A DNA stretch of 64,000 nt, from assembly GCF_054482595.1 (NCBI RefSeq), contig NZ_CM137008.1. One strand, written 5' to 3'. A program made the translations under genes and the position numbers. Shown piece after piece: positions 16,568-21,616 of this stretch (position 1 is the stretch's first letter; the number at the start of each line of letters is the position of its first letter). The notes under the pieces were generated by a model that saw only the letters and a list, made by a program, of their open reading frames with translations, was not told the DNA's origin and searched no databases.

Positions 16568-17925
16568 TGAAAAGATTATCTATAACCGTCCGTTTAACCT
16601 TGCTTTTTATATTGCTGCTGTCTGTTGCTGGCGTTGGAATTGTATGGACTCTCTATAATGGCTTGGCAAGTGAGTTGAAATGGCGCGATGATACAACACT
16701 CATTAACCGGACAGCGCAGATCAAGCAGTTGTTAATTGATGGGGTAAATCCAGATACGTTACCTGTGTACTTTAACCGGATGATGGATGTTAGTCAGGAT
16801 ATCTTGATCATTCATGGTGATAGCATCAACAAAATTGTTAACCGGACGAATGTCAGTGATGACATGTTAAATAACATACCTGCTACTGAGACAATCAGCG
16901 CAGCTGGCATTTACAGAAGCATTATTAATGATACAGAGATAGATGCTTTACGAATTAATATTGATGAAGTTTCGCCATCATTAACGGTTACTGTGGCTAA
17001 ATTGGCTTCAGCCAGACATAACATGCTTGAACAGTATAAAATTAATAGCATTATAATTTGCATTGTCGCCATTGTACTTTGCTCAGTATTAAGTCCGCTG
17101 TTAATCAGAACGGGATTACGAGAGATCAAAAAGTTGAGTGGTGTAACGGAAGCGCTGAATTATAACGATAGCCGGGAGCCTGTTGAGGTTAGCGCATTAC
17201 CGAGAGAACTAAAACCTCTTGGGCAGGCGTTGAATAAAATGCATCATGCTTTAGTCAAAGATTTTGAGCGTCTAAGTCAGTTTGCTGACGATCTCGCTCA
17301 TGAACTTAGAACGCCCATTAATGCATTACTGGGTCAGAATCAGGTTACGCTCAGTCAAACCAGAAGTATCGCTGAATATAAAAAAACAATTGCCGGTAAC
17401 ATTGAAGAGCTGGAAAATATTTCGCGGTTAACAGAGAACATACTGTTTCTTGCCCGGGCAGATAAAAACAATGTTTTGGTGAAACTGGACTCACTTTTTC
17501 TCAATAAGGAAGTCGAAAATTTGTTGGATTATCTTGAATACCTTTCAGACGAGAAAGAGATTTGCTTTAAGGTCGAGTGCAATCAGCAAATCTTTGCGGA
17601 TAAAATTTTACTGCAACGAATGTTATCGAATCTTATTGTTAATGCCATTAGATATTCACCAGAAAAATCGCGCATTCATATAACCAGTTTTCTTGATACC
17701 AACGGCTATCTTAATATTGATATCGCCAGTCCTGGAACGAAAATTAATGAGCCTGAAAAACTCTTCCGTAGATTTTGGCGGGGAGATAATTCGCGTCATT
17801 CCGAAGGTCAGGGACTTGGTCTTTCTTTAGTCAAAGCGATTGCCGAATTGCATGGGGGAAGTGCTACGTATCACTATTTTAATAAGCATAATGTGTTCCG
17901 AATTACGTTACCGCAAAGAAATTAA
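16567..17925 (+). CDS. hprS: Sensor histidine kinase HprS
   Basis: 452-aa ORF with two TM segments and H-box (ELRTPINAL); start overlaps the hprR stop. Confidence 0.9.
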   Translation: MKRLSITVRLTLLFILLLSVAGVGIVWTLYNGLASELKWRDDTTLINRTAQIKQLLIDGVNPDTLPVYFNRMMDVSQDILIIHGDSINKIVNRTNVSDDMLNNIPATETISAAGIYRSIINDTEIDALRINIDEVSPSLTVTVAKLASARHNMLEQYKINSIIICIVAIVLCSVLSPLLIRTGLREIKKLSGVTEALNYNDSREPVEVSALPRELKPLGQALNKMHHALVKDFERLSQFADDLAHELRTPINALLGQNQVTLSQTRSIAEYKKTIAGNIEELENISRLTENILFLARADKNNVLVKLDSLFLNKEVENLLDYLEYLSDEKEICFKVECNQQIFADKILLQRMLSNLIVNAIRYSPEKSRIHITSFLDTNGYLNIDIASPGTKINEPEKLFRRFWRGDNSRHSEGQGLGLSLVKAIAELHGGSATYHYFNKHNVFRITLPQRN

Positions 17926-17959
17926 CATAGGGCTTCAGTACGCCATAAATCAACCATGA

Positions 17960-18000
17960 AAAAACGCAGCCACGTCGTGAGTATTAACGTGGCTGCGATT
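17960..18000. terminator. Hairpin between convergent hprS and hchA
   Basis: gcagccacg...cgtggctgc inverted repeat. Confidence 0.4.
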
Positions 18001-18032
18001 GATTATGCGCTTACATTCATACGTAACAGGGA

Positions 18033-18884
18033 TTAACCCGCATAAGCTGCCAGCATTTCCTGCGCCGCCAGTTTACCCAACGCAATCGCTGCGAAAGGAC
18101 TGTCGCCGGTGAGAACTTTACGGTCCTTATGTACTCGCCCGGTGATGTCGTCATTAATAATGTTCATGCCCATTTTCTTCAGCTCTTCGCCGAAGTACCA
18201 GGTGAGATGACCCGGCATATAGCCTATCTCTGGCGTTTGTTTGTCTGCGGCGTCTGGGAATGCGCAAATGGAATAACCATTCAGTGGGTTATCGCCGTGG
18301 CGAAGCGCCAGAAAAGCCGCCGGGCCGTGGCAAAGGGAGATAACAAAACGGTCATTTTTGATTGCCCACTGTAAAGCGGCAGCTACGTCCTGGCTTTCTG
18401 GTAAACCAATAAGTGCGCCATGACCACCAGGAACAAAGATTGCTGCATATTCGCTATCAGCGTTGAGGCTGGCAACAACATCCGCGAGTTTCTTCGGATT
18501 GCGGAACAACGATTTATGCTGCTCAAAGAATGGCATTACTTTTTCATCTTTGTGCGGCATAGCCCAGTATTCAAACTTGGTCATCAGACCGGAAATGGTC
18601 GCCACTTCGAATTCGAAACCTGCAGCATGGAGATGATACAACGGCAGCAACGTTTCAATCGGATGGTTACCGGTCGAGAACAGTTTTCCGTTATCGGTCG
18701 GCAAATAACGTTCGTCCGCGGCGATCACCAGAATTTTATGTTTACCGCGATAAGGTTTTGGATAGTCCACGCCATCAAGATCAGAGACAGGACTGGTATA
18801 TTGGCTAAGCGAATATTCTGAAGGGAAGAATGCATTATCTTCAGCAATATCGACCTGCGGATTTTTACTTGTTTGAACAGTCAT
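18033..18884 (-). CDS. hchA: Hsp31 glyoxalase III / protein deglycase (DJ-1/PfpI family)
   Basis: 283-aa ORF recognisably Hsp31 (MTVQTSKNPQVDIAEDNAFFPSEYSLSQYTSPVSDLDG...). Confidence 0.9.
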   Translation of the reverse strand: MTVQTSKNPQVDIAEDNAFFPSEYSLSQYTSPVSDLDGVDYPKPYRGKHKILVIAADERYLPTDNGKLFSTGNHPIETLLPLYHLHAAGFEFEVATISGLMTKFEYWAMPHKDEKVMPFFEQHKSLFRNPKKLADVVASLNADSEYAAIFVPGGHGALIGLPESQDVAAALQWAIKNDRFVISLCHGPAAFLALRHGDNPLNGYSICAFPDAADKQTPEIGYMPGHLTWYFGEELKKMGMNIINDDITGRVHKDRKVLTGDSPFAAIALGKLAAQEMLAAYAG

Positions 18885-19394
18885 AGTGTATTCCTTATTG
18901 TTGCTTAGTTAGGGTAGTCACTATATTTGCGACTGAGCTGGTCGCTATTTTTAACCAGGCTGGAAAATTGAGTCAATATATCGAAAGCGGTAGTCGGCGG
19001 GTGTAAGTATGTAATGATGATGCTGCACTGGTGTTGAATATTATTCACGCCAAATTTTCCTTATTGAGTAACGTCGTCGCAAGTGGCCTCAATGATTTTA
19101 GACCATTATCAGAGGTACGGGGTGGCTGGGAGAGATTTAGTGCTGTGGAATATTGTGGTGCTGATGAATATTTATATCGCGGATTGGTAGAGAAAAATCT
19201 TATTTCATGCACTATTTTTGCAAATATTTCTATATGGGAAGCGTGTTTGTTATGGATTAATTCATAAAGAAATGCATTTGGGTGTTGGCTTGAAGAGTCG
19301 CTGGTTGATGTTGTTGTGCCAGGAGGGGCAGGGTAAGGTGCTGTATCGATATGCTTCGGCAATTGCGTGTGCCGCAGATGGAGATGAAATGTCA

Positions 19395-19433
19395 ATAAAA
19401 AAGCCTGAGTTCGATGAGGGACGAACTCAGGCT
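19395..19433 (-). terminator. Rho-independent terminator of the porin gene
   Basis: agcctgagttcg-(loop)-cgaactcaggct hairpin; on the minus strand it is followed by a T-run (A-run 19397..19402 on the plus strand). Confidence 0.6.
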
Positions 19434-19475
19434 AGTGTTCAGTTTTACAGTAACACGCCGCGGCGCGTTGGCTGA

Positions 19476-20663
19476 TTAGAACTGGTAGACTAAGCCCACA
19501 GCCACGATATCATCGGTAGCGATGCCGTTTTCTTTGTAGAAGTCGTCGTCGTTGTCCAGCAGGTTGATTTTGTAATCAACATAAGTGGACATGTTTTTGT
19601 TGAAGTAGTAGGTCATACCAATATCAACATATTTAACCAGATCTTTGTTGGTGTAATGATGATTACCCTGGCTGTCGAAGTTATCACTATTTACACCGCC
19701 TAAATCCTTACCTTTAGATTGCAGGTAAGCGATGGACGGGCGCAGGCCAAAGTCGAACTGATACTGAGCAACAACTTCAAAGTTTTGGGTTTTGTTAGCG
19801 ATGGCATCAGCATCACCGTAACCAGTCATGTTACGGGTTTCAGCATACATAGCTGCTAAGTAAACGTTATTAGCGTCATATTTAGCACCAACGGTCCATG
19901 CTTCTGCTGTTTCACCGCCAGCAGTTGCATCGAAGCGATCTCCATAACGAATGTTATGCAAACCTTTGTGAACCTGATTGTCAGTACGGTCAGAATTAGA
20001 ATATGCAGCACCCAGACTTAAACCGAAGTCGAAGTCATAGGAAGTGGACATACCGAAGCCGTCGCCGTTCTCTTTAGCTAACTTACGGCCATTACCGTTA
20101 CCAGAACCTTCCTGACCGAATAATCCATCATCTTCATTATTACCCTGATATTGCAAAGCAAAGTTCAAGCCATCGACCTGACCAAAGAAGCCATTGTTAC
20201 GGTAGGTTGCAACACCATTAGCACGACCGTTCATGAAGTTGTCAGCGCCAGCATAGGTATCGCCACCAAATTCTGGCAGCATATCGGTCCATGCTTCTAC
20301 GTCATATACGACACCGTAGTTACGACCATAGTCGAAAGTACCATTCTGACCAAAGCCTAAACCTGCAAATGCCAGACGCGTTGCGGTATTACCCTTGTCG
20401 CTTTCAGGACCGTTTGCGCCAATGTTAAATTCCCACTGACCATAACCAGTGAATTGATCAGCGATCTGAGTTTCACCTTTGAAACCGATACGGGCATATG
20501 ACATGTCGCCATCGCTGCCAGAATCATCAGAGAAGTAGTGCAGACCCACTACTTTTCCGTACAAATCCAGTTTATTACCATCTTTATTATAGACTTCAGC
20601 CGCATTTGCTGCGCCAGCAACTAATAATGCCGGGACCAGCATTGCCAGAACTTTTCTTTTCAT
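19476..20663 (-). CDS. yedS: General-diffusion porin (OmpC/OmpF family), intact
   Basis: Signal peptide [37 protein letters not shown] start and terminal F typical of porins; position next to hchA matches yedS; the ORF-track start at 20693 is an upstream extension. Confidence 0.8.
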
Positions 20664-21292
20664 TATGTATTCCCTTGTGATTATAATCTTCATGAATATA
20701 TCAATAAGTGCCGTTATCCAAAAAAAAGCACATTTGGATACTATTCTATGAAGTTCATTTTATTTTAAAGATTACATGTAACAAATGTATTTAAAAGATT
20801 TCAAAATGTTTCTAATCTATTTAATATAATTTAGAATTATGAATTCTAAATATAAATATTCATGAAAATTATAAATGTATATCAATATGTTATGAGTTGA
20901 GCGGAAGCATAGGGGGTATCAATGATTGTTGCGCCAAACGGCTGGTGTGATCACGCGCACATTAATGAAGGCATAAAAAAAAGCCGGCATCATGCCGGCC
21001 CAAAAAATATAAACAAGACGATAAAAGGCTAATAACGGAGGCATCATGACACAGAAAAATAAAAAGGTATAATTGTATTCAGTGCTAATATATTGATTAA
21101 ATGAATTAATAAAGCCGATCTCAAAGATAAATAAAATCGCTCAAAACGATTTTTCCTGTATTCACTGCCGTTGCGCAAAAATTATCTATTTGTTCAAAAA
21201 ATGAGTGAGTCTTGACTGGCTCATCCAATGTGGAAAAATGTGACTTTTATCACATAATAGTACTAAGTCTGAATTTTCCGGGTTATCTCAAA

Positions 21293-21616
21293 ATGGAATA
21301 CGGTTCGACAAAGATGGAAGAGAGACTCTCTCGCAGCCCTGGTGGCAAACTGGCTTTGTGGGCTTTCTATACATGGTGTGGCTATTTCGTCTGGGCAATG
21401 GCGCGTTACATCTGGGCAATGGCGCGTTACATCTGGGTGATGAGCCGGATCCCCGATGCCCCCGTGTCGGGATTTGAAAGCGATTTAGGCTCTACCGCGG
21501 GAAAGTGGTTAGGGGCACTGGTCGGATTTTTATTTATGGCTCTGGTCGGGGCATTGTTAGGCAGCATTGCCTGGTACACCCGACCTCGTCCCGCACGTAG
21601 CAGACGCTATGAATAA
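21293..21616 (+). CDS. yedR: Small inner-membrane protein YedR; carries a 21-bp in-frame tandem duplication
   Basis: ORF containing MEYGSTKMEERLSRSPGGKLALWAFYTWCGYFVWAMARYIWAMARYIWVMSRIP...; start codon uncertain (ORF track begins at 21212). Confidence 0.7.
   Translation: MEYGSTKMEERLSRSPGGKLALWAFYTWCGYFVWAMARYIWAMARYIWVMSRIPDAPVSGFESDLGSTAGKWLGALVGFLFMALVGALLGSIAWYTRPRPARSRRYE

Follow-up and report, generated by a model that had tools for sequence, protein, structure and literature searches.

The window, by which we mean the whole 64-kb stretch of DNA that was analyzed, carries hchA at 18033..18884 on the minus strand (ATG at 18882-18884) and a porin gene (yedS; ompC in PGAP) at 19476..20693 on the same strand, with its stop codon at 19476-19478. 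The porin-hchA spacer between the two extends from 18885 to 19475 and is 591 bp long. Gene order around the spacer in this region of E. coli is hprRS / hchA / porin (yedS) / rseX / drpB / yedJ; K-12 MG1655 has the same order, and there the 591 bp between yedS and hchA are without an annotated feature. Of 5426 complete E. coli genomes, 4739 have the spacer, once each and at 93-99.8% identity. It was also present, together with an hchA gene 98-99% identical to that of E. coli, on two contigs (L016 and L038) of a MAG labelled Collinsella sp., where it is almost certainly the result of bin contamination.

A terminator scan placed the intrinsic terminator of the porin gene at 19402-19433 on the minus strand, as a 12-bp stem with seven G-C pairs and a T6 tail (T-tract 19401-19396), and the hairpin is also found in E. 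albertii and in L007, a relative described below. The end coordinate chosen in the original prediction for an interval with no assignable gene, 19394, is just past this T-tract. The porin gene is intact in the window; K-12 has it as a pseudogene, and in an O157:H7 strain it contains a frameshift. The length of the porin also differs among strains (352 to 405 aa). Upstream of the porin gene is the rseX sRNA gene (20976-21065, minus strand; Rfam RF01401, 96.7 bits), and the spacer that holds rseX is very AT-rich (GC 0.20 at 20700-20899).

At the other end of the spacer, the approximately 220 bp next to hchA (18885-19107) comprise the hchA 5' UTR, promoter and upstream control DNA, and are the sole strongly constrained part of the spacer. 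We place the 5' UTR and core promoter at 18885..18992 (minus strand), given the results of a promoter scan, an alignment across the genus (E. coli, E. albertii and four other Escherichia lineages) and low diversity. The 5' UTR includes a Shine-Dalgarno sequence, AAGGA, at 18896-18892 on the minus strand. The best candidate for a -10 element, TATAGT (18925-18920, minus strand), is invariant across the genus and has a poor -35, and the promoter scan also returned a second promoter-like pair on the minus strand, TTGACT (18976-18971) and AAAAAT (18952-18947), with 18 nt spacing. Between the two promoter-like sites lies an inverted repeat, GCGAC-N7-GTCGC (18945-18929, minus strand), that is nearly invariant across the genus; it is possible that this is an operator or a 5' UTR hairpin, and when read on the plus strand it takes the form of a terminator-like hairpin followed by TATTTTT. 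We infer the placement of the hchA start site in use, that is, at TATAGT as against TTGACT-18-AAAAAT, from features of this kind. The hchA promoter is reportedly of the sigma-S type, which would favor the TATAGT site. The interval's proximal 220 bp or so are the control region known as the hchA (Hsp31) promoter region, with the difference that the choice between the two promoter-like sites is tentative here.

The upstream part of the putative control region (18993..19107) can be aligned across the genus and is approximately 80% identical to L007 3391-3279. It includes a perfect 13-bp palindrome, TGAATA-T-TATTCA, at 19035-19047, about 150 bp upstream of hchA, which is kept in E. coli and in part in other Escherichia and is a candidate transcription-factor site. 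Blocks of near-invariant sequence across the genus, read on the minus strand, are TACCGCTTTCGATATATTGAC; CTGGTTAAA.ATAGC; CCAGCTCAGTCGC; AATATAGTGAC; and ACAA..AGGAATACACTATG.

The key to the remainder of the spacer comes from other Escherichia lineages. HchA-encoding loci were scanned, with one genome taken per species, and this gave E. albertii, L005, L006 (E. whittamii), L007 and L008 as relatives for comparison. Identity of hchA DNA to that of the window is 85-87% in L005-L008 and 85-89% when E. albertii is included, as against approximately 99% within E. coli. When the spacer was compared to the relatives' loci by blastn, matches were found at its two ends only. In L005-L008 the porin-hchA spacer is 1185 bp (versus 591 in the window), and in it lies an intact ORF of 134 aa in the reverse orientation to hchA, diverging from hchA and converging on the porin gene; in the lineages with this intact ORF the terminator hairpin is positioned between the two convergent genes. 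The protein matches the Usp family in Pfam (PF00582; 38.4 bits versus a cut-off of 24), and we refer to the gene as usp. Intact usp is also found between hchA and the porin gene in L051-L055, and the order hchA / usp / porin / drpB / yedJ is constant on further, longer contigs. We did not find usp near hchA in the Citrobacter, Enterobacter, Pluralibacter, Rosenbergiella, Pantoea or Stenotrophomonas loci. A homolog with 55% identity is encoded on two short contigs of unknown organism (L047:945-1352 and L048:493-900), where it is convergent with the 3' end of a porin gene and has a YCII-domain gene, not hchA, on its other flank; the usp-porin pair may be an older unit than the linkage to hchA.

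The nearest relatives of the intact protein are UspG and UspF (best NCBIfam/PDB matches: UspG, E=2.9e-16; UspF/KPN_01444, E of about 2e-6). Like other members of the UspG/UspF branch of PF00582 it is a single-domain protein, of approximately 134 aa, that scores above the Pfam gathering threshold. It differs from them in falling far under the equivalog cut-offs (59.8 versus 189 bits for UspG and 33.4 versus 166 for UspF) and is therefore a separate, narrowly distributed paralog; a word-indexed search of 5.8 billion proteins returned only 8 clusters. Pairwise dN/dS among four intact usp copies ranged from 0.18 to 0.38 (six comparisons), and usp is therefore a real gene in L005-L008. Intact usp is under purifying selection in several Escherichia lineages other than E. 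coli.

In the window, the place of this gene is taken by a relic (pseudo-usp) at 19140..19389 on the plus strand, which corresponds to K-12 2,035,330-2,035,580 and was delimited by profile search, alignments and direct reading. A DNA profile for nhmmer was built from the usp ORF alone (six intact copies), because homology was to be tested without help from the flanks, and was run against both strands of the whole 64 kb. It gave exactly two significant matches, which are colinear and on the plus strand, with the next-best match at E=0.77: a 5' block at 19148..19231, which corresponds to usp nt 9-93 (codons 3-31; E=6.1e-5), and a 3' block at 19292..19385, which corresponds to usp nt 307-401 (E=1.7e-4). 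The same two blocks were found in K-12 and in the divergent strain GABEEC132 (E=4.6e-7 and 2e-6, respectively, for the 5' block). A tblastn search of the spacer with the intact Usp protein gave two weak, short fragments only (E of about 4-7), and homology was therefore established at the DNA level by the profile. By blastn, the 3' block is 76-79% identical to L006-L008.

Global alignment of the spacer to L007 divided the DNA into four segments. Positions 18885-19107 pair with the hchA-proximal 222 bp; then comes a gap of approximately 475 bp, which is the missing L007 usp-hchA divergent spacer; 19147-19230 falls on usp codons 2-27; and, beyond additional gaps, 19290-19390 falls on the usp 3' end, running into the common terminator. 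The G-rich stretch at 19108..19139 is thus an E. coli-specific junction at which the approximately 475 bp of ancestral usp-hchA divergent spacer are missing.

The reading frame of the relic has been destroyed. The former usp ATG is now GTG (19140-19142), and translation from this GTG gives VLWNIVVLMNIYIADW, compared with MYRNIVIPVNIFSRDDRE in the intact protein, before a TAG is met at 19188-19190 after 16 codons. The FFANVSS region that comes next is in another frame, as part of a 78-aa ORF. Usp codons ~32-102 have shrunk to about 60 nt, with approximately 155 nt lost from the middle of the gene. Further on, LVDVVVPGGAG ends at an in-frame TAA (19334-19336), and IDMLRQLRVP (19345-19374), in which 8 of 10 residues are identical to IDMLRQFSVP of the intact protein by tblastn, is in a third frame. 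There are in all at least three frame changes, and the original stop codon is lost. The path of the relic through the plus-strand frames takes in the end of a 35-aa ORF, part of the 78-aa ORF and two frames near 19301-19398, such that it matches no single ORF in the list on which the original prediction was based, and none of the window ORFs scores as a Usp protein above the gathering score of the Usp profile. What is left amounts to about 60% of the length of usp with approximately 70-78% DNA identity to the intact copies, and the relic is therefore invisible to protein-level annotation and unannotated in K-12. Homopolymer length also varies inside the relic; where the window has GGAGGGGCAGGG (~19319-19333), some strains (MAG38 and DETEC-S589 in our alignment) have 9-10 consecutive G.

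Decay of usp can be followed in other species. Contigs of E. marmotae contain an intermediate pseudogene in which most of usp is present, with an 81-nt internal deletion and, in one copy, frameshifts; an internal deletion boundary and several changes are common to E. coli. In E. albertii almost everything from the terminator to the hchA-proximal region has been lost, and this loss is independent. Taken over the genus, E. coli, E. marmotae and E. albertii have each lost usp by an independent route. We found no blastn match to intact usp plus its upstream spacer in the 5426 complete E. coli genomes from RefSeq, none of which therefore retains an intact usp.

Diversity within E. coli, measured in an alignment of nine spacers, follows the same division of the DNA. 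It is 0.010 in the 100 bp adjoining hchA, roughly 10-fold below hchA synonymous sites, and 0.026 in the next 123 bp (the 18993..19107 part); it reaches 0.096 at the junction (19108..19139), the most variable stretch of the spacer, and is 0.047-0.073 across the relic. For hchA in the same nine strains, synonymous diversity is 0.102 and non-synonymous diversity 0.003. Small indels of 1-3 bases are present in at least six places in the distal part and in none in the proximal 200 bp, and other strains have IS5-type elements inserted at the junction. The diversity of the relic is somewhat under that of hchA synonymous sites, which counts against a simple relic reading. Nevertheless, relic diversity is near-neutral and constraint is confined to the hchA-proximal part.

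Two of the insertions deserve separate description. In E. coli TUM2820 (L042:1529-3538) a copy of the IS5-like element ISKpn26 is found in place of almost all of the spacer plus the first 25 or so hchA codons; hchA is dispensable in this strain. In E. coli EH09-18-41 (L002:2757-2865), the closest relative of the window strain, a 109-bp element is present at the position equivalent to window 19137-19140, that is, at the former usp start. It has IS5-type terminal inverted repeats (GGAAGGTGCGAATAAGT ... ACTTATTCGCACCTTCC) and a 4-bp target duplication, TTAG, and is missing from the window. An element 100% identical to it occurs in 32 of the 5426 E. coli genomes, on chromosomes and plasmids and in up to 31 copies per genome, and has the appearance of a non-autonomous (MITE-like) element that is still active. 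IS5-type elements have targeted the spacer recurrently.

The relic is a pseudogene: (i) it has significant homology to usp; (ii) it has the synteny and orientation of the intact gene; (iii) its frame is destroyed; (iv) the intact homolog is under selection and (v) constraint on the relic itself is relaxed. We consider it very probable that the interval consists of the hchA control region, a decayed Usp-family pseudogene and the porin terminator, with no live gene inside. On this reading, a small ancestral usp gene stood between hchA and the porin gene, diverging from the former and converging on the latter, and in E. coli usp lost its start codon, approximately 155 nt of its middle, its frame and, upstream of it, approximately 475 bp of DNA that had held its promoter; the porin terminator closes the interval. 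Given the lost start codon, frame and upstream DNA, the remnant would make no product, and is likely to be transcriptionally silent and without function. The original prediction had held that the interval should include the hchA promoter and be longer than a promoter needs, and this agrees with the division into a constrained segment of about 220 bp and a relic of about 250 bp. It had also offered two explanations for the excess length, a small RNA or a degraded ORF, and it is the degraded ORF that survives, as a usp relic with an intact counterpart in relatives; the small RNA is not borne out by Rfam, by folding or by a scan for promoters and terminators (see below). The comparison across Escherichia that had been proposed as a check bears this out, with the hchA-proximal part alignable genus-wide and the distal 250 bp or so turning out to be the usp relic.

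An alternative, which is compatible with the origin of the relic in usp and differs on present function only, is co-option: the DNA of the relic would now act in the control of hchA, either as an AT-rich platform for H-NS or as a Rho loading site against porin read-through. We think this unlikely. The plus strand of the spacer contains 189 T, 168 G, 149 A and 85 C. The odd composition that had been remarked on is real; GC skew of 19101-19400 on the plus strand is +0.456, a value that no other 300-bp window exceeded when 1274 of them were slid along the 64 kb (mean 0.041, sd 0.104). For the relic the skew is +0.46, roughly twice the +0.12 to +0.22 of the intact gene. Using as the ancestral state those sites where L007 and E. 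marmotae agree, we found 23 gains of G and 7 of C on the plus strand of the E. coli lineage, in which 15 of 33 C but only 12 of 57 G were lost; the skew arose largely after pseudogenisation. Such a skew is not obviously predicted by simple neutral decay, and the region may be subject to some constraint or to biased mutation. On the minus strand all 78-nt windows between 19475 and 19112 have a C:G ratio of 1.4 to 5.0, and hardly any structure is predicted for the minus-strand RNA of 19108-19400 (-29.9 kcal/mol for 293 nt); the minus strand thus has the composition looked for in a Rho loading (rut) site, that is, C-rich, G-poor and unstructured over at least 80 nt or so. The GC content of 37-41% is also in keeping with co-option. 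So is the repression of hchA by H-NS, which is reported along with sigma-S/sigma-70 dependence (Mujacic and Baneyx 2006, Mol Microbiol 60:1576); such repression may be exerted through the AT-rich DNA of the spacer.

Against co-option, the porin terminator looks strong and little read-through is expected from it. The searched portion of the Term-seq supplement of Adams et al. (2021) lists no 3' ends at K-12 2,035,200-2,035,799, although this is not decisive, since yedS is a pseudogene in that strain. Furthermore, the DNA in question is the most variable part of the spacer, with indels, it tolerates IS5-type insertions, and its sequence differs in E. albertii and other lineages. The plus strand of the window is presumably the leading strand, as we reckon it from K-12 coordinates, and the skew could result from a leading-strand mutation bias in DNA free of constraint. 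That the relic has been reshaped and kept as an insulator for hchA, be it as a Rho loader and/or an AT-rich H-NS platform, strikes us as a little more doubtful still than co-option in its general form. If it were true, the relic would stop transcription leaking from a highly expressed porin gene from turning on the stress-controlled hchA.

We also considered whether the spacer encodes a real small protein. That there is no assignable gene here had been the starting point, and it holds: K-12 is unannotated, and the three ORFs that were listed are each disrupted in a large share of eight other E. coli strains (4/8 for the 78-aa ORF, 5/8 for the 85-aa ORF and 6/8 for the 116-aa ORF). All three are present in the window, at 19031..19267 (78 aa, plus strand, GTG start), 19218..19475 (85 aa, plus strand, TTG start) and 19045..19395 (116 aa, minus strand, TTG start), and they do overlap one another, as had been noted. 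The impression that they lack convincing ribosome-binding sites was likewise right, as direct reading of the sequence upstream of each revealed no Shine-Dalgarno motif. In a minority of RefSeq genomes PGAP annotates a 136-aa 'hypothetical protein' (WP_244565069.1) in the spacer, and this is the first of two points in favor of a small protein. The 136-aa frame is the 78-aa and 85-aa frames fused, in strains with a 1-nt deletion. This fusion is due to chance; the frame is split or stopped in most strains, K-12 and the window included, and neither it nor any of the window ORFs has a Pfam match at E<=1. The three listed ORFs of 78, 85 and 116 aa are frames that happen to be open in DNA that is drifting.

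The second point in favor is a 47-aa ORF (18905..19048, minus strand), which has AGGA 9 nt ahead of its GTG and an uninterrupted frame in all nine E. coli strains, E. albertii and E. whittamii. Its frame is broken in L005, L007 and L008, however, and its start codon is GTA in strain D9. Variable sites by codon position number 18/12/14, without an excess at the third position, and the ORF overlaps the hchA core promoter, with a start upstream of either candidate promoter. The codon-position pattern and the frame breaks led us to reject it as an upstream ORF of hchA. Conservation of the ORF would reflect conservation of the regulatory region at the DNA level, and the ORF itself is probably non-coding. 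The searched part of the small-ORF supplement of Stringer et al. (2021) has no entry for translated small ORFs at the spacer coordinates (K-12 2,035,200-2,035,799); this supplement and the Term-seq supplement cover few conditions, and both are weak evidence. Overall, a real small protein, whether the 136-aa PGAP frame or the 47-aa upstream ORF, seems to us very improbable.

We attach just as little credence to a small regulatory RNA, for which the length of the spacer and the presence of a known sRNA gene, rseX, across the porin gene might be cited. An Rfam scan of 17900-21500 at E<=10 found nothing within 18885-19475, and folding of 19108-19400 revealed no excess stability (z=+0.77 on the plus strand and +0.41 on the minus strand). 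The sole promoter-like site of the spacer faces hchA, and our scan found neither a promoter-like site on the plus strand within the relic nor an internal terminator; the only terminators are that of the porin gene, the plus-strand side of which is without a direct T-run, and the short hairpin within the hchA promoter. High diversity and indels also speak against an sRNA, as does the lack of 3' ends in the Term-seq supplement as searched. The searched supplements of the ROSE paper and of Peano (2015) likewise have no entry for the spacer. Finally, IS5-type insertions here in some strains might point to the remnant of a mobile or repeated element, an origin that we rejected and regard as hardly worth entertaining since the spacer is single-copy (median of one place per genome in 4870 genomes), the insertions are not in the window and usp homology explains the sequence.

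There is precedent for unannotated pseudogene relics of this kind, yedS in K-12 being an example. As in such cases, an intact homolog of the usp relic occupies the same syntenic position in relatives, and the relic has frameshifts, stops, deletions, near-neutral diversity and a history of repeated independent loss; it differs from yedS in K-12 in being far more decayed. It differs from the Usp family proper in that the window copy is not a protein-coding member. A decayed usp is an ordinary outcome and opens no new mechanism. It does explain the unusually long unannotated spacer in nearly all E. coli, K-12 included, and shows that the occasional 'hypothetical protein' calls in this spacer are annotation artefacts and that the constrained hchA control region is limited to approximately 220 bp. 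Having been lost in three species and kept in other lineages, usp serves as a modest marker of Escherichia evolution and as a tidy example of gene decay.
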